Position numbers and translations under genes: made by a program
Part shown: one piece after another, positions 10,127-61,923 of the stretch
How positions within the stretch are numbered: position 1 is the stretch's first letter
Layout of the letters: every line of letters begins with the position of its first letter
The notes under the pieces: model-generated
The model's input: the letters and a program-made list of their open reading frames with translations, nothing else
What the model was told of the DNA's origin: nothing
Databases searched by the model: none
Source of the DNA: Eubacteriales bacterium
GTDB lineage: Bacteria; Bacillota; Clostridia; Oscillospirales; CAG-382
Direction: 5' to 3'
DNA length: 64,000 nt
NCBI GenBank assembly: GCA_045652625.1
Contig: JAZRUR010000041.1
Coordinates: 16,494-80,493 of the forward strand

Positions 10127-10593
10127 ATGAATCTAATATTGGCTTTTAAATCGCGTATTGCAAGGCCATTACAACAGCGATATTTTGAATATTCCAAATA
10201 CGGACCAAAAATCAAAAAATACAATAACAAGTTTAATAATAAACGTTGTTTCATCGTCGCTAATGGTCCGAGTTTACGAACAGAGGACTTGGATATCCTA
10301 CACGAACGCGGAGAAATCACATTCGGCATGAACCGTATATATAAATTGTTTTCTGAAACAAAATGGCACCCAGCATTTAATGTAATTATTGACCCGACTG
10401 CAAGAGATTATTTTTGCGAAAGATATGACAGTGACATACAAGATATTGTAGTTCATGACATGGGAAACAATACCCGCGCCTATATTGATGCAAAAAATAT
10501 TGTGAGGAAACCTGCAAAACTACAATCTATAATGCAACTCGCGGTGGCAAACTAGAAGTGTTCCAACGAGTCGATTTTGAAGGTTTATTTTAA
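10127..10593 (+). pseudogene. Decayed DUF115 (MptE-like/Maf-like) glycan transferase paralogue with an internal deletion and a frameshift
   Basis: The N-terminus (KRCFIVANGPSLRTEDL...KWHPAFNV) aligns with the intact paralogue at 12183..12947. The alignment then jumps straight to IIDPTARDYF...YIDAKN, skipping about 100 aa of the core. After about nt 10510 the homologous tail TTIYNATRGGKLEVFQRVDFEGLF* continues in another frame, ending at TAA 10591-10593. Confidence 0.75.
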
Positions 10594-12142: not shown

Positions 12143-12182
12143 AATATATGAAAATTAATGTGTCGCGGTAATGAGGTTTGAT

Positions 12183-12947
12183 ATGCACCCAATTAAATCT
12201 ATCCAGGCAAGAACTCAAAGTTTTTTTTCAAAACATTTTGAATGGACAAGACACGGAAGAAAACTTGCAAAACTAAAAAATACCAATATTAACAATCGTT
12301 GTTTTGTAATTGGAAATGGCCCAAGTTTGCGTCCCGAAGATCTTACCACTCTTTTTAATAACAACATCCCGTGTTTTGCTTCCAACAACATTTTTAAGAT
12401 ATTCGATAAAACAGTTTGGCGCCCAACTTACTACGTCTGTGAGGATATTTTAGTATTAGAAGACCTTCACAAAAAAATCTCTCAGACAAATTTTGATTTC
12501 AAATTCATTCCAATTAACTATAAGTGGTATAATGATATCAAAATTTCTAATGCACACTATTTCTTGCAATCATTTGAAAAGAATATAGAACTTTCCGACA
12601 ATATCCCTCACTCTATCGTTTGCAAAAGCACAGTTACTACTACCGCTATCCAATTGGCGGCATATATGGGATACACAGAAATTTACTTATTAGGCGTAGA
12701 CCATAGTTACAGAACCACTCGAGATAACGCAGGAAATATCATTGTTGATCCAACTGCTACCGATTATTTTGACAATAATTATGCAGAAACAATGAAGAAA
12801 AAAGATATCCCAAACACTGAGGCTACAACACAATCTTATATCGATGCTAAAAATCAACTCGATAAAAGAGGTGTTACTGTTTATAATGCAACACGTGGCG
12901 GTAAACTCGAAGTTTTCCCGCGTATTGATTTTGATACACTATTTTAG
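12183..12947 (+). CDS. DUF115 / 6-hydroxymethylpterin diphosphokinase MptE-like family protein (Maf-like putative ulosonic-acid transferase)
   Basis: RCFVIGNGPSLRPEDL Rossmann-like start, LLGVDHSY core and ATRGGKLEVFPR C-terminus. The ATG at 12183 follows a GAGG RBS, and an alternative ATG lies at 12171. Confidence 0.7.
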   Translation: MHPIKSIQARTQSFFSKHFEWTRHGRKLAKLKNTNINNRCFVIGNGPSLRPEDLTTLFNNNIPCFASNNIFKIFDKTVWRPTYYVCEDILVLEDLHKKISQTNFDFKFIPINYKWYNDIKISNAHYFLQSFEKNIELSDNIPHSIVCKSTVTTTAIQLAAYMGYTEIYLLGVDHSYRTTRDNAGNIIVDPTATDYFDNNYAETMKKKDIPNTEATTQSYIDAKNQLDKRGVTVYNATRGGKLEVFPRIDFDTLF

Positions 12948-21128: not shown

Positions 21129-22301
21129 TCAATGAATATTTGTTTGTGATTCAAAATATTCATCCAAACCGCTTACGCTAAATGCAGGTACATAGGTACG
21201 GGCATATCGGTCATCGTCAATTAATTTATAGAATGCATAAAAGGGATAAACCAAGTTATTTTCAGGATTTGGAACATACTCTATACCAACTTTATCATAA
21301 TTTGAAAAATCCACTTCGGATTGATTTTTCATACACCTCTTACAAATATGCCCTCCGAAAACATATCCTTGGTTCAATAAAAACTCCGCGTCCTTAAGTG
21401 AAATTGTTTTATACGATCCAATTTCTTTCATTTTCGAAGAAGAACCGTAATAAAACAGCGTATTCAGTGAAATATACTCATCAGGATTAACACGTGAACC
21501 GATAGTCAAAGATATATGATTGCCTTCAAACAACGGTCTGCCATCAACAAAAAACTCTTTGTTATCGTTTGCATCATAAATGTAAACCTCATATTCATCA
21601 ACCGACGGTCTTTTACAAACAATTATATCATCATACTCTATACCAAATCGTTTTTGCAATGACGCTAGTAACTCTAAAACAGATTGATATACTTCGGAAT
21701 AGGTAGCGTTTTTGTTAAGAAATATCGTTTTGCCGTCAATATATATTGATTCTTCTAATGTTCCCCCCATTTCTATTTCATAATAATCTGAAGTAATATT
21801 CGGGAATTCTAAAGCAGATAGTTTTTCCCCATTAGGAAGCGAACCGAGCATAACACTATCAAGTGATTCAAACCTTAAAACCTGATAAGCACTTGTGAAT
21901 GCATCCATGCGATCAGGGAAAAAGTCGGCTATTTCCGAAGCCGTAAAATCCCCTTCCTCGTTATTGTATATAGGTGGGGTGTCCACGATTTCGTCACTCG
22001 ATGTATCGTCCGAAATATCTATGGACTCGATCATTGATGCACTAATATCACTGCTATCGTCTGTTGAGGATTCCGAATAAACAGAAATTGTATCATAACC
22101 GTCTATCGGTTCATCGGATTTGTTTATAAAATACGAAAGCGCAAACACAGTACTTACTAACAAAACAAGGCAAGCCGCAACCAAGATAACCCGCTTAATA
22201 GCAGCGCTATGACGCTTTTGCGGAACATAATTAGGCGAAATTGCCTCGATATATTTGCTCGAAACATAAGAAAGTGATGTAAATATATCAATACCTTTCA
22301 T
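21129..22301 (-). CDS. Putative anti-sigma factor: single-pass membrane protein with a large extracytoplasmic domain of unknown function
   Basis: 390 aa. A short cytoplasmic N-terminus is followed by one TM segment (VILVAACLVLLVSTVFALSYFI). The gene overlaps the upstream ECF-type sigma gene by 4 nt (ATGA). The anti-sigma role is inferred from context only. Confidence 0.5.
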   Translation of the reverse strand: MKGIDIFTSLSYVSSKYIEAISPNYVPQKRHSAAIKRVILVAACLVLLVSTVFALSYFINKSDEPIDGYDTISVYSESSTDDSSDISASMIESIDISDDTSSDEIVDTPPIYNNEEGDFTASEIADFFPDRMDAFTSAYQVLRFESLDSVMLGSLPNGEKLSALEFPNITSDYYEIEMGGTLEESIYIDGKTIFLNKNATYSEVYQSVLELLASLQKRFGIEYDDIIVCKRPSVDEYEVYIYDANDNKEFFVDGRPLFEGNHISLTIGSRVNPDEYISLNTLFYYGSSSKMKEIGSYKTISLKDAEFLLNQGYVFGGHICKRCMKNQSEVDFSNYDKVGIEYVPNPENNLVYPFYAFYKLIDDDRYARTYVPAFSVSGLDEYFESQTNIH

Positions 22302-22849
22302 TTATATAATCCTTTCTCAATCAAATGTTTTTTCAGCCGTTTTCGCATACGTGACAAGCGCATCTTCGCACTTGCTTCACTTATACCAAGAATACGCGCA
22401 GTGTCAAAAAACGAATTTGCTTCATAATATCTAAGCAAGAATAATTTTCGATTAACTGTATCTTCGTTAGCAAGAAAACTATTAATCGCATCTGCAAGTT
22501 CGTAATTGGACGCTTCAACGGACGAAGAAGCGATACAATTTTCCAACTCCTCGAAGACGGCCGTCAAGCCCCTGCGCTTCTCTGAAGAGAGGTATCTATA
22601 TCGGTCTAACGCAATATTCCGCGTTATTACCGAAAGATAGGCAAACAAGTTATCAGGATATTTAGGCGGAACTGTATTCCAAAGACGTAAAAGCGCATCA
22701 TTAAAACACTCTTCTGCATCGGATTCGTTACCAAGAATATTGTGAGCGATACGAATACATGACAGTGCATATTTTTGTTGCACTTCTGCCAGAGCCGTTT
22801 CCGAGCGCTCAAATAACAAACGGATTATTTCGTTATCGTTCACAATCAA
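22298..22849 (-). CDS. RNA polymerase sigma-70 family factor, ECF-like
   Basis: 183 aa. Region 2-like AEECFNDALLRLWN and region 4 helix-turn-helix ARILGISEASAKMRLSRMRKRLK. Confidence 0.8.
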   Translation of the reverse strand: MIVNDNEIIRLLFERSETALAEVQQKYALSCIRIAHNILGNESDAEECFNDALLRLWNTVPPKYPDNLFAYLSVITRNIALDRYRYLSSEKRRGLTAVFEELENCIASSSVEASNYELADAINSFLANEDTVNRKLFLLRYYEANSFFDTARILGISEASAKMRLSRMRKRLKKHLIEKGLYK

Positions 22850-32428: not shown

Positions 32429-33280
32429 ATGGCAAATTTTGTTTTTTCTGCATTCGCAGATGAAATCGATTCTAATTTTGACAAACAGATCGAGGGGTTG
32501 AAAGCGTTAAACATCGGTTATATTGAACTTCGCGGTGTTGACGGTAAAAGTTTTATTGAACTTACCGATGAAGAAGTTTTAGTTGTTAAGAACAAACTTG
32601 ACAGCAACAATATCAAGATTTCCGCACTCGGTACTCCCATTGGTAAAATCAACGTTGACGGTGACTTTGATGCTCACAAGAAGTTGCTTACCAGAATCAT
32701 GGACATTGGCGATATGCTTGGTTGCAAGGTACTCAGAATGTTCAGTTTCTACCCTGCTGACGGTATGTGTGACTGCGAATTTAAGAAAATCGCGTTCAAG
32801 TACGTTGGTGAACTTCTTGACATGGCTGATGCACGTGGTTTTATTCTCTGCCACGAAAACGAAAAAGATATATTCGGCTGTTCTCCCGAACGCGAACTTG
32901 AATTGATGCAGTATTTCGGCGGCAGATTAAAGGCAGTTTTAGACCCCGGTAACTTCGCGTTCTGTTTTGAAGATGCATCTAAAGGTTATCCCCTTTTGAA
33001 AGACTACATTCATTATTTCCACATCAAAGACGCTGATGAAACCGGCGCTATTGTTCCTCCCGGCAAAGGCGTTGCTTGTCTTGAAGAAACTCTCAAAGCA
33101 GTTAATAAGGACAGAGATGGTCAGGTCATCATTACTATGGAACCGCACTTGATGAACTTTACCGGTTTGTCAAGCCTTTCTAAACTTGATGATATACATC
33201 ACGTTTATTCCTTTGAAACACCGTTCGAAGCGTTTAAAGTTGCTACCGAAGCGGTAAGAGATATGGTTAGTAAGTTTTGA
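32429..33280 (+). CDS. Sugar phosphate isomerase/epimerase (xylose isomerase-like TIM barrel) family protein
   Basis: 283 aa. IELRG, the LCHENE (metal-ligand Glu) and HIKD blocks are typical of the AP_endonuc_2/TIM-barrel family. Confidence 0.7.
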   Translation: MANFVFSAFADEIDSNFDKQIEGLKALNIGYIELRGVDGKSFIELTDEEVLVVKNKLDSNNIKISALGTPIGKINVDGDFDAHKKLLTRIMDIGDMLGCKVLRMFSFYPADGMCDCEFKKIAFKYVGELLDMADARGFILCHENEKDIFGCSPERELELMQYFGGRLKAVLDPGNFAFCFEDASKGYPLLKDYIHYFHIKDADETGAIVPPGKGVACLEETLKAVNKDRDGQVIITMEPHLMNFTGLSSLSKLDDIHHVYSFETPFEAFKVATEAVRDMVSKF

Positions 33281-34869
33281 AAAATAAATTAAAACTATTC
33301 GGCGCGGTAATTAACCGCGCCGTAATAAATAAACGCGTTTCGCTTTCGCTTTGCTTCTTAGCAGGTGTATTAGGTGCACTTCCCTATTACAATGAGGAAC
33401 TGTTCATTTTCACATTTATTTCTTTATTCGTGCAGTTTTATATTGTAATAGAACAGAGAAAAGCATTCAACCGAATATTTGCCACTTTCTTTTGGTATTT
33501 TCTTGGTTTTTATTTTCCACTATACCTATTCCTTTCGGAACTTTACCCCTACAGTCGATTTGGATTTGACGAAAGCCAAGCAGTTTTCATTCTGATCTGT
33601 TCATGTATAGCGATTCCGCTTTTACATGCGGTCGTAGAAGCCTCTATAATGTTGCTCACGCGTTTTTTTAGTAACAATGGTTGGGACATTATTGCTTACG
33701 CTTCGATTTGGGTAATTGGCGAATGGGTGCTTTCTCTCGGGACACTTGCTTTCCCTTGGGGCGGCACTGCAGTATCTTTAACAGGTTTCCTCCCATACAT
33801 ACAAACCGCTTCTTTATTCGGAAAATACTTTGTTACCTTTATCACTACCGCAGGGTGCTATGCGTTTGCGTTGGGAGTAGTAGAACGAAGGAATATTTTC
33901 GCACTTATAGGCGCTTCTGTTATCAGTATCAATGCAATTTTAGGTACGATATTGTGGTATATACCGACCGAGAAAGGTAACGATGTTGCCGTTGCAGCGA
34001 TTCAAGGAAACGTACTTTCAAACGAAAAATGGGAGAGCGTTAACTCGAATCTCATTTTCGACCGATACATCGGTATGACCGAGGACGCGGCAAAAAGCGG
34101 TGCAAAACTTATAATTTTGCCGGAAAGTGCTATTCCGCAGTACTTCATTCCGAGCGGCAAGATTCATGACGCCTTATCGGATATCACAAATAAATACGAT
34201 GTTACGGTTGTTTGCGGCGTTCATTACTATGATAAAACAAGCAAAGCCAACTATAACTCCGTTGTTGCTGTTTATCCCGACGGAAGTCTATCGGAGCATT
34301 ATGACAAAAGGCATCTTGTTCCGTTCGGCGAGTTTATTCCATTTGTCGACTTTATCAGCGAATTTCTGCCATTCGTAGGAGAATTCAACAGTAGCACAAG
34401 CGAACTCTCCGAAGGCACTGAACCTGTGGTCATTGATACTAACCACGGTACAATTTCACCGTTAGTCTGTTTCGACTCTATTTTCCAGCAGTTTGCGCGT
34501 GATGGTGTAAATAAAGGTTCCGAATTTATTGCAGTCGTCACAAACGACAGTTGGTTTAACGACAGCATCGGCATTTATACCCATTTGCGTCATGCACAAC
34601 TACGTGCTATAGAAAACCGCCGTTATGTGCTTCGCGCCGCGAATACGGGCGTTTCAGCCTTTATTGATGAACGCGGAAGAGTTATTAACAAAACAGAACC
34701 GCTTACTATTGATACTGAAATCGGCAACGTTTATTCAATAGATAAAGTTACGCTATACACCGAAATCGGTGACATCATACTTTACGTTTCGTTTTTTAAT
34801 ATTGCTATATTTGTTCTGAACTATATAAGGAGATTGTTCAATGGAAAGAATACAACTTCACCAAAATGA
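33277..34869 (+). CDS. lnt: Apolipoprotein N-acyltransferase (Lnt)-like protein
   Basis: A polytopic N-terminal domain plus a CN-hydrolase domain with the E/K/C triad contexts LIILPESAIP, DKRHLVPFGEFIP and PLVCFDSIF, then a C-terminal TM segment. It uses a TTG start overlapping the upstream stop. Confidence 0.8.
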   Translation: MKNKLKLFGAVINRAVINKRVSLSLCFLAGVLGALPYYNEELFIFTFISLFVQFYIVIEQRKAFNRIFATFFWYFLGFYFPLYLFLSELYPYSRFGFDESQAVFILICSCIAIPLLHAVVEASIMLLTRFFSNNGWDIIAYASIWVIGEWVLSLGTLAFPWGGTAVSLTGFLPYIQTASLFGKYFVTFITTAGCYAFALGVVERRNIFALIGASVISINAILGTILWYIPTEKGNDVAVAAIQGNVLSNEKWESVNSNLIFDRYIGMTEDAAKSGAKLIILPESAIPQYFIPSGKIHDALSDITNKYDVTVVCGVHYYDKTSKANYNSVVAVYPDGSLSEHYDKRHLVPFGEFIPFVDFISEFLPFVGEFNSSTSELSEGTEPVVIDTNHGTISPLVCFDSIFQQFARDGVNKGSEFIAVVTNDSWFNDSIGIYTHLRHAQLRAIENRRYVLRAANTGVSAFIDERGRVINKTEPLTIDTEIGNVYSIDKVTLYTEIGDIILYVSFFNIAIFVLNYIRRLFNGKNTTSPK

Positions 34870-35935: not shown

Positions 35936-37582
<1,647 letters not shown>

Positions 37583-39282: not shown

Positions 39283-41103
39283 CTATTTTTTATTCTTTTT
39301 CTTTATAACTAAAATCACAACTATTAAAAGCGCGACAACTGGGACAACACTTACAACAACCCAAATAACCCAGTTGTCGTTACGTTGAACAGAGACAGAA
39401 GTGTCAACATTAGTATCATCGACCGAACCTATTGATGCTACGGATGAAGTGTCGCTCTCAGGTTCAGAAGTATTATCACTTTGTATATTCTTTGTAGCAC
39501 CAACCAGCGCTTCACCGCAGAATACAAAGTTTGCATTTGAATTAATGAAAGAATACTTCACATAACGCGCCGTTACGGGAGCGGACACATGCTTAATGTA
39601 AGAAACGGCGTCAATATACTCAAGTTGCGGTTGAGCGATCAATTTAAACTCTTCACCGTCGTCCGAAATATATATCTTTATATCATCCGCAGGGTCATCT
39701 ATGCCGTAATCTTCGACATGACTGAACTGCATCATAAAGTAAGTCAAATCGTTGCGTGTCGAACCAAGGTCGATAGTCACACTCATTCTTCCATCATCGT
39801 CAAGATGTGATACATGGAATGCGTGCCACTCAGTACCAAGGGGTGAAGAACCTATAACACCGTCGGTAAGTTCCTTACCGTCATTCTTTTGATAATCCGC
39901 ACCACCACCGTCAGAGTATGGCTTGGATGCAACATAATCTTTACCTATAGAAATCCAATCTACATAGTCAGGCAAGGCAAATACTTCACTGCGGTTTGCG
40001 TCAATGTCCTCCTGTGTGAGAGTGCCTTTTGCATATTTATATGTCAAATCATATATCGAACGTGCACGCGCGTCGGAAGAATAACGTGCATTATAATATA
40101 CAGCATTTTTTCCGTCTTGATAATACATCTTGATCGAATCCATTGCGCCGCCTTGCATACAACCTTCAAGATAATCAAGGTATCGGTTGTAATATTCGCC
40201 ATTGCTAAGCGCACGATAGTCTAATTCAATTTCGACGCCCATACCCATAGAGTTACATTCATTTACACATGCTTCAACTCTATTTTTATCTGCCGCAATT
40301 TGCCAATACATATTGGGTTGCATACAAACGGCATCAAATCCAAGTTCCTGCCAGATATTATACCCGTTTGCTCTGTAATAAGGAATCCAAATGAACTTCA
40401 AGCCGAGTGAATGCAGATATTCCGAGGCATATTTAAATAATTCTTTATCTTCCGCTTTATAGAAATATTCTTCGAGCCAATAGAATCCTACCAAATCAAG
40501 ATTCTCATAACCCGCTTCAGTATACAAGCGAATTTGTTCATCAATTATCCATTTGATTGCATATTTGCGGTCTTCGATGTTGGAAAAATCAAGCGCCTTT
40601 CCGCCAAGTGTTCCAAAATTCGCACCCGAAGCCTTGCCGGGGTACAAAATAGTAAAAAACACTCCCGCTTTCTTATCGGGCTCGTTAAGTTCCTCTTTAA
40701 CTTTGCCGAAAGCAGTGTCAAGCGCATCAACGTTTGTACCCTCATAGAAAGTATCTTCTACATAACTGGTCCAGTCTAACGCCTTTGACGGCTTGGATGT
40801 ATCGTAATGCATACTTGCGCCGGATGCGCCCAACTTTACACAAGGAAGAAAAAGATAACTGTCAAAAAAGAAATCTTTAATATTTCCGTCAGTATCGTAA
40901 TATGCCACATACGGCATCAGATCTTCTACATTATGACGTCCGTTATCGGTTCTGCTGGGGTTCCACGTATATGTCAGACAGAGATTTTCATAACCGTCCA
41001 TGTTTGATGTTTGAGGAAAAGATGCGCCGACATTGATGCTAAATAAAGAAAATACCGACGACAATAGCGTGATAGCGAGTATAAACGAAATGTATCTTTT
41101 CAT
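39283..41103 (-). CDS. Secreted DUF4855-like domain protein with a C-terminal discoidin (F5/8 type C)-like module and a C-terminal TM anchor
   Basis: It has a signal peptide. Blocks shared with the 42348..45350 product include LMPYVAYYDTDGNI, FDSYLFLP, GFYWLEE, FIWIPYY and MQPNMYW. It then has LTDGV...ARYVKY (discoidin-like) and VVVSVVPVVALLIVVILVIKKKNKK. Confidence 0.6.
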   Translation of the reverse strand: MKRYISFILAITLLSSVFSLFSINVGASFPQTSNMDGYENLCLTYTWNPSRTDNGRHNVEDLMPYVAYYDTDGNIKDFFFDSYLFLPCVKLGASGASMHYDTSKPSKALDWTSYVEDTFYEGTNVDALDTAFGKVKEELNEPDKKAGVFFTILYPGKASGANFGTLGGKALDFSNIEDRKYAIKWIIDEQIRLYTEAGYENLDLVGFYWLEEYFYKAEDKELFKYASEYLHSLGLKFIWIPYYRANGYNIWQELGFDAVCMQPNMYWQIAADKNRVEACVNECNSMGMGVEIELDYRALSNGEYYNRYLDYLEGCMQGGAMDSIKMYYQDGKNAVYYNARYSSDARARSIYDLTYKYAKGTLTQEDIDANRSEVFALPDYVDWISIGKDYVASKPYSDGGGADYQKNDGKELTDGVIGSSPLGTEWHAFHVSHLDDDGRMSVTIDLGSTRNDLTYFMMQFSHVEDYGIDDPADDIKIYISDDGEEFKLIAQPQLEYIDAVSYIKHVSAPVTARYVKYSFINSNANFVFCGEALVGATKNIQSDNTSEPESDTSSVASIGSVDDTNVDTSVSVQRNDNWVIWVVVSVVPVVALLIVVILVIKKKNKK

Positions 41104-41785: not shown

Positions 41786-42351
41786 TTCTTGGCACTCCTT
41801 CCCTTTGCAATCAAAGCAGCAGAAAGACCGATAAGTGCACCGCCGATTATAATAAACAGAACATTAACATTTGTTAACAGAACTATCGAAAATGCAGCGA
41901 CCGCAAGAATAGCAGAAAACAAATTCTTGGGACATTGCTTTGCCATACCCCAAAGCGCCTTTACAATAAGAGCGATAACACCTGCTCGAATGCCGTTAAA
42001 AGCAAACCGTACCACCTCATAATCTAACGCTACTTCTAACACAAATGAAAGGCAAGTAATGATAATAAATGACGGCAGAACAGTACCTAAAGTTGCCGCA
42101 AACGCACCCCAAAAACCTGCCGCACGTGTACCAACAAAAGTTGCGGTATTTATCGCGATAGGACCGGGGGTGGATTCGGCTATTGCAACTATGTCAAGCA
42201 TAGTTGATTCTTCTATCCACTTTTTCTTCTCGGCAACTTCGCGCTGTATCAGCGGCAACATTGCATAGCCGCCGCCGATAGTGAATGCGCCGATTTTAAA
42301 AAAGGTGATAAAAAGCGAAAAATACATTTTAATTTTATTCATTAAAATCAA
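41782..42351 (-). CDS. chrA: Chromate transporter (CHR family, short single-domain type), first of a pair
   Basis: 189 aa. FFKIGAFTIGGGYAMLPLIQ and AESTPGPIAINTATFVG. The listed start is a TTG overlapping the upstream stop, and an alternative ATG lies at 42342. Confidence 0.85.
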   Translation of the reverse strand: MILMNKIKMYFSLFITFFKIGAFTIGGGYAMLPLIQREVAEKKKWIEESTMLDIVAIAESTPGPIAINTATFVGTRAAGFWGAFAATLGTVLPSFIIITCLSFVLEVALDYEVVRFAFNGIRAGVIALIVKALWGMAKQCPKNLFSAILAVAAFSIVLLTNVNVLFIIIGGALIGLSAALIAKGRSAKK

Positions 42352-45350
42352 CCAACCGTAACAGTAACTTTACATTCTTTAGACCAACCAAGGTAATTAC
42401 CTATTCTGTAGGTAAACGTATCAGTTCCTGTGAACCCTTTATTGGGATAATATACGAATTCGCCGTTTTCTGCAAGTGTAACCGTACCGTGTTCGGGCGA
42501 AAACGCTAATTGATACAACTTATTAGTATCATATTCGGTATTCAAATTACCTCTAATCGCGGAATTAACAGAAGTGTTTGAAATAACTTTGCCTACCGAA
42601 TCAGGCGAAATATCAAGAGTACCTTTTATAAAGTCGTGGGTGTAATCATACATAAGTCTAACTCTGGAATCGCTCGAATAACAAGCCGAGTAAAGTATAG
42701 ATACGGCTTGATAGTACATATGAATACAATCATTCATATATCCGTATTTAACGCCGCCGCTAAGATAATTCATATACTTCTTGAAATAATGTATATTGTT
42801 CAAAGCGCTTTGATGTATTTCCATTTCCAAACACATGCCGTTGAGTTTTGCGGTATGCGCGGCATTTTCGATACGTGATGAATTCACTTTCAAATCAAAG
42901 GCATAGTTAGGTTGCAAACAACCAACGTCAAATCCTAACGATTCCCAGTTTGTAGAATTAGAAGCATTATAATAAGGTATCCAGAATAAGTCATACTCTA
43001 ATTCATCAAACATCTCGTTAACTGCTTTAACCGTAGGAGCGTTGTTGCCGTCTACTTTTTCGGAGAACCAATAAAAACCGCAAAGTTCAAGGCAGGCATA
43101 ATTCATCGAATCAAACTTTGCTATTATTCTTTCGGCATATTTTCTCGCAACGTAAACCCGTCCTTCAAGAGTCGTAAGGCTATCGTTTTTACCGTCAAAA
43201 TCAATATCACCGAAATTGCTTAAAGTTCCATCCATGTTCGGAATAGCGACAAAAACTTTTAATTTATAGTTGGAAAGCCCAAGACTGTTTCTAACTTTTA
43301 ATGCCGTTTTATTAAGCGCATCAAAATCACGGTTCTGCGTAAACATCTGGTCGAACAAATAATTCCAATCGGATGCGGTGTTGGTCGAATGACCATAACC
43401 GCCGCTTGGAAGTGCCGCTGAAGACGGCAAGAACAAATAAGCGTCAAACATGGTATCGACAATATTGCCGTTTTCATCGAGGTAACCTACATAAGGAAGG
43501 AAAAAGTCCTGATTTGTGTTAGCGGAATTATGATATATCAAGCAAACGTCATTAGCGCCGCCAATGAGGTCATCAGACGGAGCCGCAAAGGAATTAGTGT
43601 TTTCGTCATTAACAAAATATTCGCTTAAATCATACTTTGTTAAAGATGTCAATGCACTTGCTTTGTTAACGTTCTTTTTACCTGTAATCGTTATTTCATC
43701 AACAAAAACGTGAACGCTTACATCAAAGTATATCATGGCGTAACGGGCACGATAGGTCTTATCTAGTTGTTCGTTTACGGTCACAATCGTTTTAGCCGCG
43801 TTTCCGATTTTCCGAGGAACAGCCTCTTTTGCCAAATACCAATCCGTTCCGTTTTCGGAGAGCACCAACTTTGCAACCGTCGGCAAATAAATACCCGAAG
43901 ATTTATCATCAAGGAACCTTATTTTGAAAGACGATACAGATGAAATATGTCCAAAATCATAAAAAATACTTCTATTGCTACCGGAGTAAAACTGACACCA
44001 ATAACCATTATAGCAATATGTATCGTTAGTTGTAACGCCATCGGTTAGAAGTTTTGTGTTTTCGGGGGCATTATATTGAGAAGCGGTTTCCATGTCCATA
44101 AAACTGTCAGCAACAATTTCGTGTCCAAGTCCTGACAGAAGATTTACAGAGGTATTGTTGCCGTATGAATTTTCCCAATACGAAGGTTCGGAGGTAGTAA
44201 CAAAATCAAAATCTCCGTACATATCCTGCAATCTGTCTTCAATTGTCGTATTTGCGTAAACCTCTACTTCCTCTATATAACAACTACCGTAACTGGAAGG
44301 TGTAGTGAAACGTACATATCGCGCTGAGAATAGTTCCTTAAACATAATGCGAAACGCATAATTGTCCTGATATTGATTAGTCGGGTACGAAACACCTATA
44401 GTATAGTAGTTTTGACCGTCTTTACTTATGCTGATTTCAACATATTTGGGAAGATACATATCATAATAAGAACGGTTGTAGCAATGAAAAGCAAAGCCGT
44501 GTATATTGTTATATACGCTACCCAAATCAACGGTTACAGATATTTGCTGGCTTGCATCAAGGCTAACCCATTGGTCAAGTTCCAACGAGGCACCTACATC
44601 AAAGCCATTAGTAAGCAGTACGTCGTAATCGGTGTTACTATAGTCAAATCTTCTGGCATCCAAGGTATATGAGCACCCTGTAGAAATAACAGAAGAACCA
44701 AGGTTTTCTTTAAATGTTGCTCCTGAAGACATATAATTTCGGTTCTCAACAAGTTGCGTGTCTGTCAAAGCATAGTTAGTATATGTGTTATCTTTATAAC
44801 TTTCTATTCTAACATCATCCTTGACTCCTTCGTCGGAATCGTCATCGCTTGTGTCATCGCTTGTGTCATCGCTCGTGTCATCACTTACGTCGCTGCTCGT
44901 GTCATCACTTACGTCGCTGCTCGTGTCATCACTTACGTCGCTGCTCGTGTCATCGCTTACGTCGCTGCTCGTGTCATCGCTTACGTCGCTGCTCGTGTCA
45001 TCGCTTACGTCGTTACTGGTATCGTCGCTGTTTGTTTCATCATTTCCGCCGTCGTCTATTTCCGGCTGAACGATAATATATGTTTTAAGTACGTGTCGCT
45101 TTATCAAAATATAGTCAGCAATGTCAACCTCGCCGTCAGAATCCACATCGGCTGAATACAACTGTTCTTCATCAAGTTCATAAGTGCCTATTACGGCGCG
45201 TTTGCACAAAACATAGTCAGTCACATCGATAACTTCATCGCCATCAACGTCGCCTATAAGACGCTGATATTCGGTTGTTTCTGCAATAGCCGTTATAGAT
45301 GTTAAAAGGAAAATTGCAGCAAGCATAAACGCTATAGTCTTTCTTAACAT
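42348..45350 (-). CDS. Large secreted protein: signal peptide, N-terminal dockerin, acidic repeat linker, two discoidin-like modules, a DUF4855-like domain and a C-terminal Ig/cadherin-like module
   Basis: 1000 aa with the following parts.
- Signal peptide MLRKTIAFMLAAIFLLTSITAIA.
- Duplicated Ca-binding dockerin segments DVDGDEVIDVTDYVLCKRAVIG and DVDSDGEVDIADYILIKRHVL.
- (DDTSSDVS)n linker.
- LLTDGV/ARYVRF discoidin-like blocks.
- DUF4855-like blocks FLPYVGYLDENGNI, FDAYLFLP, GFYWFSE, LFWIPYY and LQPNYAF.
- C-terminal GFTGTDTFTYRI. Confidence 0.7.
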   Translation of the reverse strand: MLRKTIAFMLAAIFLLTSITAIAETTEYQRLIGDVDGDEVIDVTDYVLCKRAVIGTYELDEEQLYSADVDSDGEVDIADYILIKRHVLKTYIIVQPEIDDGGNDETNSDDTSNDVSDDTSSDVSDDTSSDVSDDTSSDVSDDTSSDVSDDTSSDVSDDTSDDTSDDTSDDDSDEGVKDDVRIESYKDNTYTNYALTDTQLVENRNYMSSGATFKENLGSSVISTGCSYTLDARRFDYSNTDYDVLLTNGFDVGASLELDQWVSLDASQQISVTVDLGSVYNNIHGFAFHCYNRSYYDMYLPKYVEISISKDGQNYYTIGVSYPTNQYQDNYAFRIMFKELFSARYVRFTTPSSYGSCYIEEVEVYANTTIEDRLQDMYGDFDFVTTSEPSYWENSYGNNTSVNLLSGLGHEIVADSFMDMETASQYNAPENTKLLTDGVTTNDTYCYNGYWCQFYSGSNRSIFYDFGHISSVSSFKIRFLDDKSSGIYLPTVAKLVLSENGTDWYLAKEAVPRKIGNAAKTIVTVNEQLDKTYRARYAMIYFDVSVHVFVDEITITGKKNVNKASALTSLTKYDLSEYFVNDENTNSFAAPSDDLIGGANDVCLIYHNSANTNQDFFLPYVGYLDENGNIVDTMFDAYLFLPSSAALPSGGYGHSTNTASDWNYLFDQMFTQNRDFDALNKTALKVRNSLGLSNYKLKVFVAIPNMDGTLSNFGDIDFDGKNDSLTTLEGRVYVARKYAERIIAKFDSMNYACLELCGFYWFSEKVDGNNAPTVKAVNEMFDELEYDLFWIPYYNASNSTNWESLGFDVGCLQPNYAFDLKVNSSRIENAAHTAKLNGMCLEMEIHQSALNNIHYFKKYMNYLSGGVKYGYMNDCIHMYYQAVSILYSACYSSDSRVRLMYDYTHDFIKGTLDISPDSVGKVISNTSVNSAIRGNLNTEYDTNKLYQLAFSPEHGTVTLAENGEFVYYPNKGFTGTDTFTYRIGNYLGWSKECKVTVTVG
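44841..45020. repeat. In-frame tandem repeat (three 12-bp units then six 24-bp units) inside the dockerin protein gene
   Basis: GTCATCGCTTGT-type 12-mers run from 44841 to 44876. Three copies of GTCATCACTTACGTCGCTGCTCGT (44877-44948) are followed by two copies of GTCATCGCTTACGTCGCTGCTCGT and a third, degenerate unit ending GTTACTGGT (44949-45020). The units encode SDDT/DDTSSDVS. Confidence 0.9.
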
Positions 45351-48564: not shown

Positions 48565-49983
48565 CTAAACTTTGATTTTTTGCCATACTCCGCTAACAAA
48601 GCGGTGCATCGAGAACCATAACCTCATATATTGGTCTATAAGAAGGCTTATCCATGCGCCGAAAAGACCATATCCGAGCGGATAGCATAACACATAAGCG
48701 GTAAGCGGACGTACTAAACCGATAGATATCGCCGATGTCAATGCGACATACTTAGTGTCACCTGCACCTCGCAAAGCACCGTTATATACCACCTGTGATA
48801 TCTGACCGGGCGAAACTAATGCAATAATATACGTAAGTATCCGTCCGTTTTCAATAACATATTTATAATGTTGGTCGCTCGGGTCGGCAAAAAGTTGTAC
48901 CATCCAACCACCGCCAAACACCATTAACACAATTAATATCGCAGATATCACAACACCGATACGTTGCCCTACTTTAGCGTAAAGTGTAGCCATATCGGGA
49001 CGCGATTTACCGAGATTTTGACCGATAAGAGCACTTGCCGCAACGCTCAATCCATCACCACATGCAAAAGATACGGTTGTGATATTCATGGCGATTATAT
49101 GTGTTGCATATTCAGCAGTTCCCAACTCGGCAACAAGTTTCGCGTAGATAAAGAAGCCGATTCGCATAAACAACTGCTCTGTACCTGCACCAAGCGAAAC
49201 TCTACCGATCGTGGAGAGCAAATGTTTTTTCCAAACCAACATTCCTCTAACATTGAATTTTAAATATTTATTTTTACCTACGAGTGAAAATACACTCATG
49301 CCAAATGATGCTATATTACCTATCAGCGTCGCAACGGCCGCGCCAGTAACACCCATTTCGGGGAATATCCATAGACCGTTTATAAGGAAGGCATTAAAAA
49401 TAATATTTGTCACGTTCGCGACAACATTAGTTCGCATTGATATTTTAGTATTACCCGTTGCTCTTTGTGCCGCGTTGATTATCATACCGAACGATGTGAA
49501 CATCAAGCCGAACATCGTTATACGGAAATAAATAAGTGCGTATTCAAGCGTATCCTCGTTTGCACCCGCAAAGTTAAGTAACGGTTCTGCTACCGCAATA
49601 GCAGCACCGCATAGCACAACCGCAAGAACTGTAACAAGCCCTAACGATTGCGACAAGGTAGCATTAGCGCCCTCTTTATCGCCTTGACCTTTACGTCGCG
49701 AAACTATTGTGGTTACGGCAATACTCAATGCAAAGAACACCGCATAAAAAATCATGCGGGGTTGCGTAGTAAGGCCTACGGCTGCAACGGCATCTATGCC
49801 TTGAGTCGAAACCATAATCGAGTCAAAGATATTAACAAGACTCATAAGAATAGATTCGACCATAGCGGGCCAAGCCATTTTAAGGAAACTTTTATATAGC
49901 GAGGATGTATTGGGTAATTCACCGTTAGGCTGAAGTTTACGCGCCATCCCCGCGGTGGTAAAGATATCGGTAAGTTTCATCAT
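48565..49983 (-). CDS. MATE family efflux transporter
   Basis: 472 aa with 12 predicted TM segments. The N-terminal LKMAWPAMVESILMSLVNIFDSIMV is typical of MATE/NorM proteins. Confidence 0.85.
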   Translation of the reverse strand: MMKLTDIFTTAGMARKLQPNGELPNTSSLYKSFLKMAWPAMVESILMSLVNIFDSIMVSTQGIDAVAAVGLTTQPRMIFYAVFFALSIAVTTIVSRRKGQGDKEGANATLSQSLGLVTVLAVVLCGAAIAVAEPLLNFAGANEDTLEYALIYFRITMFGLMFTSFGMIINAAQRATGNTKISMRTNVVANVTNIIFNAFLINGLWIFPEMGVTGAAVATLIGNIASFGMSVFSLVGKNKYLKFNVRGMLVWKKHLLSTIGRVSLGAGTEQLFMRIGFFIYAKLVAELGTAEYATHIIAMNITTVSFACGDGLSVAASALIGQNLGKSRPDMATLYAKVGQRIGVVISAILIVLMVFGGGWMVQLFADPSDQHYKYVIENGRILTYIIALVSPGQISQVVYNGALRGAGDTKYVALTSAISIGLVRPLTAYVLCYPLGYGLFGAWISLLIDQYMRLWFSMHRFVSGVWQKIKV

Positions 49984-55292: not shown

Positions 55293-56306
55293 TTAAAATT
55301 GTTTAAGAAAACGAGTGTCGTTTTCAAACAAAAGACGAAGGTCATCGATACCCGACATGACCATGGCCACACGTTCTACACCCATACCGAATGCAAACCC
55401 TGTATAAACATCGGGGTCGATACCACCTGCACGAAGAACTTCGGGGTGAACCATACCGGAACCCAATATTTCCATCCAGCCCTCGCCCTTGCACAAACGG
55501 CAACCCTTACCTCCGCAAACGAAGCAGGAAACATCCACTTCGGCAGACGGCTCGGTAAATGGGAAATTGTGCGGACGAAAACGTGTTTTTGTTTCGGGTC
55601 CGAACATAGTTTTTGCGAATTGGGAGAGGATGCCCTTCAAGTCGCCCATTGTTATACCTTTATCCACAACAAGTCCTTCTAATTGATGGAACATAGGCGA
55701 ATGCGAAGCATCTGCAACGTCGCTTCTGTAAACTCTGCCGGGAGAGATTATGCGTATAGGCGGTGTCATACCGCGCATTGCACGTATCTGAACAGGCGAC
55801 GTTTGGGTACGGAGAAGAGTAGATTCTGTGATGTAAAATGTATCCTGAAAATCACGCGAAGGGTGATCGGCAGGTGCATTAAGCGCATCAAAATTGTTGG
55901 TAACAGTTTCTACTTCGGGACCTTCAGCAACCGAAAATCCCATATCGATAAAAATCTCGGTCATACGTTCAAGTGCACGTGTTATGGGATGAATATGACC
56001 AGCGGTAGGAGCAACTGCGTTATAAGTAACGTCTAACTTCTCATCAACAAGACTCTTTGCAAGAGAAAGTTTTTTTAATTCTGCGCCGCGTACTTCCAAC
56101 GCTTCTTCGATACAGTTTCTTACCTCATTGGCAATCGCACCGATAATCGGGCGTTCTTCGGGAGTAAGCGAACCCATACCGCGCAATATAGCGGTTAGTT
56201 CACCCTTTTTGCCGAGGTATTTAATTCTTATTTCCTCAAGCGAGGTTTCTGCAGCGGCAATTTCCGCCACGGCAGTTGTTTTTATAGTTTCAAGTTGTGA
56301 TTTCAT
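55293..56306 (-). CDS. pheS: Phenylalanine--tRNA ligase alpha subunit
   Basis: Class II motifs HPITRA, RTQTSPVQIR, FHQLEGL, FRPHNFPFTEPSAEVD and GFAFGMGVERVAM. Confidence 0.97.
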   Translation of the reverse strand: MKSQLETIKTTAVAEIAAAETSLEEIRIKYLGKKGELTAILRGMGSLTPEERPIIGAIANEVRNCIEEALEVRGAELKKLSLAKSLVDEKLDVTYNAVAPTAGHIHPITRALERMTEIFIDMGFSVAEGPEVETVTNNFDALNAPADHPSRDFQDTFYITESTLLRTQTSPVQIRAMRGMTPPIRIISPGRVYRSDVADASHSPMFHQLEGLVVDKGITMGDLKGILSQFAKTMFGPETKTRFRPHNFPFTEPSAEVDVSCFVCGGKGCRLCKGEGWMEILGSGMVHPEVLRAGGIDPDVYTGFAFGMGVERVAMVMSGIDDLRLLFENDTRFLKQF

Positions 56307-56325: not shown

Positions 56326-57429
56326 CTATTCGAGATAATCCTTAAGTTTTTTAGACCTGCTCGGGTGGCGAAGTTTTCTTAATGCTTTTGCCTCAATTTG
56401 ACGGATTCGTTCACGGGTAATATCGAAAACTTTTCCGACTTCTTCAAGAGTGCGCGGTCTACCGTCTTCAAGACCGAAACGGAGTTTAAGCACTGCTTCC
56501 TCACGCGGAGTCAGCGTATGAAGAACTTCTAAAAGATGTTCGCGAAGCATTTGATAAGATGCAGCATCAGCAGGTGCAGGAGTGTTGTCATCGGCGATAA
56601 AATCACCCAAATGAGAATCTTCTTCCTCGCCTATAGGCATTTCAAGCGAAACGGGTTCCTGAGCAATCTTAAGGATATCTCTTACCTTTTCAACAGGCAT
56701 ATCCATTTCCTTTGCAATTTCCTCATCAAGCGGATCTCTTCCCTTTTCCTGAAGAAGTTGACGCGAAACGCGAAGTACCTTATTGATCGTTTCTACCATG
56801 TGAACAGGAATTCGTATTGTTCTTGCCTGATCAGCAATAGCACGGGTGATGGCTTGTCTTATCCACCAAGTAGCATATGTCGAGAACTTAAATCCTTTGC
56901 CGTAGTCGAACTTTTCGGCTGCCTACATAAGACCGAGGTTACCCTCTTGAATAAGGTCAAGGAAGAACATGCCACGGTTCACATATCGTTTCGCAATACT
57001 TACAACAAGACGAAGGTTTGCTTCCACAAGTTGCTGTTTTGCATAAAGGTCGCCCTCGGACATACGGTTTGCAAGTTCAAGTTCTTTCTCTGCAGAAAGA
57101 AGCGGAACTTTACCGATTTCTTTAAGATACATTCTTACGGGGTCATCAATCGAAACACCCTCTTGTGTAAGAAGAGTATCAACATCTTCGGGAGTTTCTT
57201 CAAAATCATCGTTATCAATATCATCTTCGGATATATCGAAAACGGCATTTGCGTGTTCGGTAGCGATCTCGATACCGTTACGTTCGAGTGCTTCACACGC
57301 CTTTACAAGTTTTTCAACGGTAATATCGGTATCCGAAAGTGCTTCAAGAATCTCGGCAACCTTAATAGTACCCTTTACTTTTGCCTCATCGATCTGTTCG
57401 CGTTTAAATGCCGACAAATCCTTATCCAT
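56326..57429 (-). CDS. rpoD: Primary RNA polymerase sigma factor RpoD/SigA, interrupted by one in-frame TAG at 56923-56925
   Basis: A single frame encodes regions 1.1-2.1 (ORF 56923..57429, ...[10 protein letters not shown]), then TAG. It continues [48 protein letters not shown]... through region 4 (ORF 56326..56799). The TAG replaces the conserved Lys of GLMKAVEKFD. An annotation pipeline would flag this gene as pseudo. Confidence 0.9.
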
Positions 57430-59233
57430 TGCTGTCCTCCTGTATTTTAGACTTTTTATTTTTTATTTTATTTAAATACTCATTAAGTGCATTTGCAGGA
57501 TCTTGCTCGATCTTTTTATCGTATTCGTTGCGTTCTCGAAGTGATTTAAGAGCATCTATGTGCGAGTTCAATGCGCTAATCGTTATATCGCCAAGAGCGA
57601 GTCGCGAAGCGCGGCAATTTTCAAGTGCGCCAATCTCTTTTGGAGTTAAGACGCCGTCTTTCGACAAAACAACTTCTCTGCCCTCGGAAAATTCATCATA
57701 AAACAACGAAAATATTTTTTTGTTTAATGCGGTTGCAAAATCATCTTTGTTAAGCCGTTTTACAGCCTCCGGCCCAAAGTCGCTTCGTATAAGAAGCAGT
57801 CCGAGTATAGACTCCTCGTGAGATGCCTCCGAGGAAAAACGAAGTTTATCCACATTCGCACTTCCGCCAAAACCGCTCTGCTCACGCAACGCATTGCTGA
57901 CAACCGTCTTTTTTGCCTTTGCATCTTGACGTTTGGCCTTACGTTCAACTTCCGCGTGAAGTGACTGAAAAGTAAGTCCGAGTTTTTCTGCAGCTCGCGA
58001 TGCATATACCTCCCTCTCGGGACGCGAAGCAAGGGTGGCAATAAACGTCGTGACTTCATCAACGGCTCGAAGTTTTTCCTCCGCAACGGTTATATCAAAG
58101 CGCGATATTATCTCGCCTATTCGATAATCTATCTGACCTGAAGATCCGGTCAATTTAGCGCGGAACGAATTTGCCCCAAACTTTTTAATATATTCATCAG
58201 GATCTTTTGCTTCATTGCCAAGATTGATTATCTTTGTATCCACACCGACTTGATTGAGCAAATCTATACCTTTTAAAGTCGCTTTTCTACCTGCTTTATC
58301 AATATCGTAAGCGAGATAAACAGTTCTGCAATAGCGAGCAATTATACGCGCATGTTCGGGAGTTATTGCAGTTCCCAAGGTCGCTATCGCGTTATCGAAC
58401 CCTGCCTGATGCATTGCTATTGCATCGGGCGCACCTTCGCACAGTATCAGCGTACCGCTTTCGGTATTTTTTGCTATATTTAATCCAAAAAGTATACGAC
58501 TTTTTTTAAACACGGGAGTATCCGACGTATTTATATACTTTCTCTCGTCTTCTTCATTCAAGCGACGTCCGCTAAATGCGACAACTTCGCCGTTAACATC
58601 AAAAACAGGAAACATTAGCCTGTTACGAAACATGTCGTACATTCTTCCGTTTTTCTTGCTTTCTCCGCCAAGAAACGCCGAACGAATCTCAAAAGGCGTA
58701 TATCCTAACGACATGAGATGCTCACAAAGCGGCGCTTTTCCAAATGGCGCATCAGGCGCATAACCGATACCGAAACGCTTTACGGTAGTAGATGAGAACT
58801 GCCGTTTTTCAAGATATGCCCGTGCGTTAGCACCCGAGGGAGAAATTAATGATTTGTAGAAAAACCTCGCCGCTTCTTTATTCAACTCCAACATTCTGTC
58901 ACGCTTGACAGTCGGTTCTTGAACTTTACGGTTATCATAAGTCTCTTCTACTTTAATACCAGCGCGTTTTGCGAGAAATTCGATTGCTTCGGGATATTCT
59001 ATATTTTCGGTTTGCATGACAAACGTGACAACATCGCCACCGGCGCCGCAACCAAAGCAATAATAACTTGATGTTGCGGGAAACACCGTAAAGGAGGGTG
59101 TACGTTCACTGTGAAAAGGACAGTTGCCTACAAGATTGCTGCCCGCACGTTTAAGAGTAACTACTCTGCCGATAACTTCTTCGATATTATTACGTAATTT
59201 CAATTCTTCTAAAAATTCACGTGTGAATGCCAT
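57422..59233 (-). CDS. dnaG: DNA primase DnaG
   Basis: CHC2 zinc finger [11 protein letters not shown]...CFGCG, the Toprim motif [15 protein letters not shown] and the canonical dnaG-rpoD order with an 8-nt overlap. Confidence 0.95.
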
Positions 59234-60454: not shown

Positions 60455-61312
60455 ATGTTTGGTTATATACGCCCATTAAAGGGTGAACTATATGTTAAAG
60501 ACAGCGAGTTTTATTCGGCAGTATATTGCGGTTTATGCAGATACGGCGGAAAAAACATTTCGCACCTTACGCGTTGGCTTCTAAACTACGATTTTGTTCT
60601 GTTGGCGTTGCTCAGAATGGCGCTATGCGGCGAAAACGTTTGTGTCCAAATGAAACGCTGCCCCTATAAATTGCGCAAAAAAGCATGTGCATGTGCAGAC
60701 GAGAGTTATGCGTTTGTATGTTCGGCTTTCGGTTTACTTACATACGGAAAATTGCTTGATGACATAAAAGACGAAAAAGGTTTTAGACGTTTTACCAAAA
60801 AACTTGTAAAACCGATTTTTGCACGTATAGCAAAGAAATCCGATTCATTCGAGGGACTAAACGACATAGTATTAAAGGGACTCTCGGATACAGACGATGC
60901 CGAAAGCAAAAAATGCGATTCTATAGACAGGGCGGCGGACGGATTCGCCACCATGATGAAAAAAATCGCCTCTTACGGCTTGGACGGCGATAAAAAACTC
61001 ATAGCAGAAAACTGCGGTTATCATATAGGCCGTTTCATTTACATTGCCGACGCGCTTGACGACCTAAAAGATGACCAAAGAAAAGGAAATTATAATCCGT
61101 TATTACTGCGCTACGGTGATTTTGACAATGCCATGGCACACGTTGAAGAAATTAAAGAAACGCTTTATGACAGCCTGAACGCGTTTTCAAACTATTACGC
61201 TCTCTTGTCAAGTAATCCGATAAACGGAATCGACCGCCTGATATACAATATCACCGAACTTGGCGGCAGAGATGCGGTAAGACGTATAATCGAAAGGAAA
61301 AACAAAAAATGA
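60455..61312 (+). CDS. DUF5685-like protein with two Asp-rich motifs
   Basis: The ATG at 60455 follows a GGAG RBS. It begins [29 protein letters not shown] (recalled DUF5685-type start, unverified). It contains SYAFVC...LLDDIKDE and [21 protein letters not shown] 100 aa apart. Confidence 0.6.
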
Positions 61313-61923
61313 CAAACCCTTATGAGGTATTGGGTATTTCGGAAAATGCCTCCGACGAAGAAGTCAAAAAGGCATACCGAAAATTAGCAAAACAATACCA
61401 CCCCGACAACTATACCGACAACCCGTTAAAAGACCTCGCCGACGAAAAAATGAAGGCAATAAACGAGGCTTATGACGCAATACAGAAGCAAAGAGCCAAC
61501 AACGGATATAACCAATATAACAGCAGTAATAACACCAACAACGGTTATTACAATGACACCGGTTTTGTTCGTGTGCGCCGTCTTATAAATTCGAACAGAA
61601 TTGATGAGGCAGAAACCATATTAATGGGCATGTCCGCAGGAGAGAAAAACGCCGAATGGCATTTCCTTATGAGTCTTGTTTACTATCGAAAAGGTTGGTT
61701 ACAGGACGCTCGAAACGAGATCAATCTTGCTTGTCAAATGGACCCCTATAACCGCGAATACCGCAATTTCCAACAACGAATGAGCGCAGGGGCATACTCA
61801 AGTCCTTATTCGGGTATGAACACAAACAGTGCCACGTGTTCTACATGTGATATTTGCCAAGGTTTGATATGCGCAGATTGCTGTTGCGAATGTCTTGGCG
61901 GCGACTGCATAAGGTGTTGCTGA
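61309..61923 (+). CDS. J-domain protein with a TPR-like middle region and a C-terminal cysteine string
   Basis: A J domain [31 protein letters not shown] (HPD motif), an N-rich linker and a helical repeat region. The last 28 aa, [28 protein letters not shown], contain 11 Cys. Confidence 0.85.

Follow-up and report, generated by a model that had tools for sequence, protein, structure and literature searches.

A sigma factor gene can lack a continuous chromosomal reading frame: sigK of Bacillus and Clostridioides is interrupted by skin, a large element whose excision by recombination restores the gene. In-frame stop codons are common in bacterial genome records, a substantial fraction of them are artefacts (Belinky et al. 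2021, PMC7918605), and those that are not artefacts persist only at the time scale of polymorphism (PMC7918605). Frequent bacterial readthrough of in-frame stops has also been proposed (PMC7918605), and some gut phages carry suppressor tRNAs by which TAG is read as glutamine (PMC10879173, PMC9523058). The pyrrolysine systems and these code 15 phages have recurrent or conserved TAG codons, termination that avoids TAG, and a tRNA with a CUA anticodon. For the primary sigma factor itself, the closest described proteins are the SigA proteins of Bacillota, such as those of C. difficile (7l7b_F) and B. subtilis (7ckq).

We analyzed a 64-kb stretch of DNA, referred to as the window, in which rpoD (sigA), the gene of the primary sigma factor, is interrupted by a single TAG at codon 169. 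The gene resembled Bacillota SigA in that its product matched 7l7b_F colinearly from end to end (E=5e-148), in reaching the equivalog cutoff, and in the dnaG-rpoD gene order, but SigA has lysine where the window has TAG. Like sigK, it is a sigma factor gene without a continuous reading frame; however, one base is changed and nothing is inserted. As in the pyrrolysine and code 15 systems, an in-frame TAG would have to be read through for a functional product, whereas recurrent or conserved TAGs, TAG-avoiding termination, and a tRNA-CUA were not seen in the window. The closest likeness was to the sporadic stops of PMC7918605, in that a lone nonsense codon stands in a gene under strong purifying selection and is unshared with other species. 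Two differences limit this comparison: that study kept stops shared by at least two genomes, whereas no second genome of the window species was found, and rpoD is an essential, single-copy gene in which a tolerated knock-down is less plausible.

Results

The rpoD locus and its reading frame

The window contains a minus-strand housekeeping block consisting of dgt (HD-domain dGTPase-like), dnaG, rpoD, pheS, and pheT, and then IreB (Table 1). The order dgt-dnaG-rpoD-pheS-pheT was colinear with four loci of relatives (L001, L003, L161, and L171). A reading made from the sequence only, which preceded this analysis, had placed rpoD in the canonical position after dnaG, and dnaG was indeed found directly upstream with an overlap of 8 nt (57422-57429, minus strand), the ATG of rpoD lying inside the end of dnaG. 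The overlap was kept in relatives, for example in L161 (4197-6008 and 6001-7104), and its conservation suggests that translation of the two genes may be coupled.

Translation of the rpoD frame gave 367 codons followed by the terminal stop, with one internal stop. With X at the position of the internal stop, the protein scored 584.7 bits against the RpoD equivalog profile NCBIfam NF006666 (cutoff 572), covering profile positions 13-370 of 370, and 401 bits against TIGR02393 (RpoD_Cterm, cutoff 354). The best solved relative was C. difficile SigA (PDB 7l7b chain F, E=5e-148), and close homologues carried PF00140, PF04542, PF04539, and PF04545. The gene is 1104 nt long and was colinear without gaps with its counterparts in four relatives (L001, L002, L003, and L035). 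The protein thus had the equivalog score, the conserved regions 1.2, 2, 3, and 4, and the orthologous position downstream of dnaG that characterize a group 1 sigma-70 factor, and it departed from that group in its reading frame, which is interrupted at codon 169. Both the translation and the NF006666 match agreed with the sequence-only reading, which had described the frame as a complete primary sigma factor with one TAG. The codon reads CTA on the plus strand, where position 56925 has A instead of the expected T, converting AAG (Lys) to TAG. Judged by its distance from the WW motif of region 2.3, the site corresponds to K414 of E. coli sigma-70.

If the TAG terminates translation, the 168-aa N-terminal part is the sole product. 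The first in-frame ATG, GTG, or TTG after the TAG was the ATG at 56799, 41 codons downstream, so the earlier claim that none precedes MVETINK held, and no Shine-Dalgarno-like purine run was found before this ATG. Since there is no start within these 41 codons, a separate polypeptide could not include regions 2.2-2.4. A split sigma factor made as two polypeptides was ruled out by the 41 codons devoid of a start and by the missing ribosome-binding purine run.

Table 1. Coordinates of rpoD, its parts, and the adjoining genes in the window.
Feature	Position	Strand	Description	Basis
rpoD/sigA, primary sigma factor	56326..57429	-	367 sense positions and its own TAG stop	translation, NF006666, 7l7b_F
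In-frame TAG	56923..56925	-	codon 169, replaces a conserved Lys of region 2.2/2.3	translation; AAG/AAA/CGN in relatives
N-terminal open part	56923..57429	-	168 aa, regions 1.1-2.1 and the start of 2.2	ORF list
Post-TAG part	56329..56922	-	198 codons, regions 2.2-4.2, fully conserved	conserved columns, dN/dS
First in-frame start past the TAG	56797..56799	-	ATG of MVETINK	ORF list
dnaG (primase)	57422..59233	-	intact	Pfam Zn_ribbon_DnaG, DNAG_N, Toprim, DnaB_bind
pheS	55293..56306	-	intact, 19 nt downstream of rpoD	Pfam tRNA-synt_2d, Phe_tRNA-synt_N

Codon 169 and constraint on rpoD in relatives

Orthologous loci were collected from a one-genome-per-species scan (80 loci), a metagenome scan (80 loci), and the closest proteins in a set of 5.8 billion proteins (12 loci), and 168 loci of relatives covered the TAG codon. 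The one-genome-per-species loci came almost entirely from uncultured Clostridia, Oscillospiraceae, or Eubacteriales of animal and human guts. Codon 169 was AAG in 63 of the 168 loci, AAA in 102, CGN (Arg) in 3, and TAG in none. The lysine described beforehand as conserved was therefore present in 165 of the 168 loci, and the change AAG to TAG that had been proposed is a single step. Internal stops in rpoD were absent from all 105 distinct homologues. When the protein was compared at the 172 columns that were at least 95% conserved in 80 relatives, codon 169 was the only departure and the other 171 columns matched the consensus; downstream of the TAG, all 125 strongly conserved columns were intact.

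We then considered the constraint on the two parts of the gene against four relatives. Before the TAG dN/dS was 0.04-0.11, whereas the part that follows had 0.005-0.012, with synonymous sites near saturation (pS 0.6-0.74). Such low values at saturated synonymous sites indicated that the post-TAG half was translated for essentially the entire history of the lineage. By this comparison the change to TAG would have to be so recent as to be instantaneous on an evolutionary scale, or else not be real; readthrough, the other possibility, is unlikely in view of the use of TAG as terminator and the non-conservation of the stop.

A real TAG could also mean that this copy of rpoD is a very young pseudogene, the cell relying on a second primary sigma factor elsewhere or, if polyploid, on other copies that are intact. 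A very recent event would be consistent with the lack of further decay; nothing positive pointed to one. Against it, the copy is the syntenic dnaG-rpoD-pheST orthologue that is intact in all relatives, its dN/dS showed no relaxation of constraint, and the only other sigma factor in the 64-kb window was of the ECF type (22298..22849), with no second primary sigma factor. A decaying pseudogene would be expected to have several lesions and a dN/dS approaching 1; one lesion and a low dN/dS were found, in line with the earlier argument that the absence of other frame damage speaks against long-standing pseudogenization. We regard a young pseudogene as improbable.

TAG as a terminator in the window

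Stop codon usage was determined for about 60 genes of the window, with one spurious antisense ORF left out. TAA ended 30 genes, TGA 21, and TAG 9, the last including clpP, serS, yicC, two glycosyltransferase genes, and rpoD. Where family profiles could be compared, the TAG coincided with the end of the family: YicC ended at position 291 of 291, ClpP at 191 of 192, and SerS at 418 of 418. The terminal TAG of rpoD is backed by a TGA one codon later. That TAG is a real terminator here and that genome-wide reassignment is unlikely, both claimed before, were thereby upheld, and a count of in-frame TAGs in other conserved genes of the window, which had been suggested as a check, found none beyond rpoD.

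These results bear directly on the reading of TAG as a sense codon, through pyrrolysine or through genome-wide or partial reassignment. Beyond the single codon nothing favored it. Reassignment should give many in-frame TAGs and a genome that avoids TAG as terminator, whereas the roughly 60 genes, some 20,000 codons together, had one in-frame TAG and conserved proteins ended at TAG exactly where their families end. Pyrrolysine should leave TAG conserved at the site in orthologues, whereas 0 of 168 had it and the site was Lys or Arg in all of these loci; moreover, neither pyl genes, sought among the annotated proteins, nor methylamine methyltransferases were present in the 64-kb window. A sense TAG is contradicted by the window itself, and we give it almost no chance.

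In 3 of the 9 genes ending in TAG, the frame past the stop continued into the next gene and ran on for 382-529 codons. Because these three genes open into an unrelated next gene, efficient amber suppression would fuse proteins and be harmful. The stops concerned lie at 10553-10555 (plus strand), 39283-39285 (minus strand), and 48565-48567 (minus strand), with a stop-free gap of 9-21 nt, and they join an MptE-like fragment to a flippase, a DUF4855 protein to an RlmL-like methyltransferase, and a MATE pump to an M32 carboxypeptidase. The same continuation was seen in 2 of the 51 genes ending in TAA or TGA, and the excess at TAG genes is probably due to chance.

Suppression and readthrough at codon 169

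The TAG could be real and fixed, with full-length sigma-A made by means of a tRNA that suppresses amber codons (of chromosomal origin, or from a prophage or phage of the TAG-recoding type that is common in guts), a weakened RF1, or near-cognate readthrough. The perfectly conserved post-TAG half is what would be expected if it is translated, and both the gut phages that read TAG as glutamine and the proposed frequency of bacterial readthrough provide precedents. However, the same perfect conservation is equally expected under an error or a very recent change. The stop was found in 0 of 168 orthologues, and TAG serves as a normal terminator in 9 of about 60 genes, of which three would be fused to the next gene. 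No tRNA and no Rfam family was detected in the 64-kb window. The RNA fold of a 135-nt segment that begins 15 nt before the TAG and extends about 115 nt past it was no stabler than shuffled sequence (z = +1.29), giving no sign of unusual structure. The base after the in-frame TAG is G, and in E. coli data a stop followed by G is not known as a leaky context. Taken together, full-length sigma-A by suppression appeared a shade less probable than the young pseudogene. Programmed readthrough, for which a conserved stop and a stimulatory context or structure would be expected, was rejected: the stop was not conserved, no stimulatory structure was found, and the 64-kb window had neither an Rfam family nor a tRNA.

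Same-species sequence and quality of the assembly

Collections were searched for sequence of the same species. The exact 47-nt pattern around the TAG codon had 0 matches in metagenome_contigs, and exact-product look-ups returned no record for the 168-aa and 157-aa pieces of rpoD, or for pheS, dnaG, and IreB. In protein-guided scans the best amino-acid identity was 93% in genome_contigs and 84% in metagenome_contigs. The closest proteins in the 5.8-billion set were one with 96.7% identity (P0132) and one identical over 104 aa (P0122), the contigs of both having a DNA identity of 81-84% to the window. The closest DNA, L171/L172, was 84% identical and had an intact rpoD with AAA at the TAG site. 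By pattern, product look-ups, and protein-guided scans, no same-species sequence was found in the collections searched.

Signs of other damage were sought in the window. Across the whole 64 kb, no other gene was split into long open segments parted by one stop, the remaining cases being unrelated adjacent genes, and no truncated conserved gene was found elsewhere. At conserved columns, pheT, pheS, dnaG, dgt, IreB, DUF5685, and yicC had 0 departures; among 11 neighboring genes examined there were none at about 750 conserved columns, except for 2 in a DnaJ-domain protein. In this protein (61309-61923, plus strand), 53 conserved columns were compared with 16 homologues, and two differed, with I10 in place of V and N65 in place of G; with so few homologues, the differences may reflect true divergence rather than wrong bases. 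The clean neighboring genes bound the error rate only loosely, and are no proof for or against an error at the TAG.

The relatives are known solely from metagenome assemblies, many of very low coverage, with contig names giving 1-6x (such as 'cov_2.06' for L001). At a coverage of 1-6x, a consensus can take up a single wrong base call or a minor allele. Against an error, about 170 other assemblies of relatives, many of them also of low coverage, had no such stop in rpoD, and errors of this kind must therefore be rare per gene. This rarity is offset by the way in which the TAG came to attention, as it was singled out by a scan that looked for oddities.

Antisense frames and other features of the window

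A 304-aa ORF (56536-57450, plus strand) lies opposite rpoD, and a 505-aa ORF (36065-37582, plus strand) lies opposite groEL. These long antisense ORFs arise because the highly expressed rpoD and groEL are nearly devoid of TTA, TCA, and CTA codons, of which rpoD has 2 and groEL 0, against a window mean of 3.4% of codons. Antisense-open runs of at least 250 codons were present in rpoD of 40 of the 168 relatives, and read in the antisense frame, the change AAG to TAG exchanges one Leu codon for another (CTT to CTA) and so is silent. A function for the 304-aa ORF was rejected, as it is a by-product of codon bias with the same effect opposite groEL.

Elsewhere the window consists of densely packed, intact chromosomal genes, among them a polysaccharide-synthesis cluster, tig-clpP-clpX, parAB, serS, groES/EL, a MATE pump, and an M32 peptidase. 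The 183-aa ECF-type sigma factor and a 390-aa protein have reading frames that overlap by 4 nt (21129-22849 for the pair, minus strand); the 390-aa protein matched no Pfam family and is possibly the anti-sigma factor of the ECF factor. In the polysaccharide cluster, a short MptE-like ORF of 142 aa (10127-10555, plus strand) matched profile positions 12-108 of 171 with 31.8 bits, below the cutoff of 34.6; a full-length MptE-like paralogue (12171-12947, plus strand) lies two genes away, and the short ORF may be a truncated duplicate. Two paralogues combine DUF4855 with an F5/8 type C domain (39283-41103 and 42348-45350, both minus strand). The larger of them (1000 aa) also has type I dockerin and Ig-like domains, which suggests a cellulosome-associated enzyme. 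An apolipoprotein N-acyltransferase-like protein with LNT_N and CN_hydrolase domains (33277-34869, plus strand) was present in this Clostridia genome; Lnt is atypical of low-GC Gram-positives.

Discussion

We consider that the TAG in rpoD stems from an error of assembly or base calling, or else is a variant that has not become fixed, and thus an artefact or a transient allele, with a probability of roughly 80% for the two combined. The division between them can only be drawn roughly and favors the error, which on its own we hold to be probable, over the rare allele, which on its own we hold to be unlikely. What was found would be an isolated single-base discrepancy in a primary sigma gene that is otherwise functional and syntenic. 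The bacterium is evidently an uncultured member of the Clostridia from gut or rumen, and its viable population would use the gene without this TAG. It may have arisen as a base-call or consensus error in an assembly that is metagenome-derived and probably of low coverage; alternatively, the assembler may have caught a rare, non-fixed, and probably lethal allele. The sequence-only reading had left four options. Comparison with relatives favored two of them, an error and a recent or heterogeneous mutation, and weighed against suppression or recoding; on a second sigA copy it spoke neither way.

A real and fixed TAG would make for a remarkable natural case, that of an indispensable single-copy sigma factor whose synthesis requires amber suppression, with the whole transcription programme hanging on a suppressor tRNA or on readthrough. 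A prophage-borne or chromosomal tRNA-CUA could then couple transcription capacity to the suppressor, as an addiction or as a throttle on expression; we judge such a dependence of an essential sigma factor on amber suppression to be highly improbable, though not as improbable as a sense TAG.

Under the preferred reading, that of an error or a non-fixed allele, the practical value of the TAG in rpoD is one of quality control. The living organism most likely reads lysine at codon 169 and makes a normal sigma-A. The rpoD gene is here to be read as an intact gene and not as a pseudogene, and the organism is not to be scored as lacking sigA.
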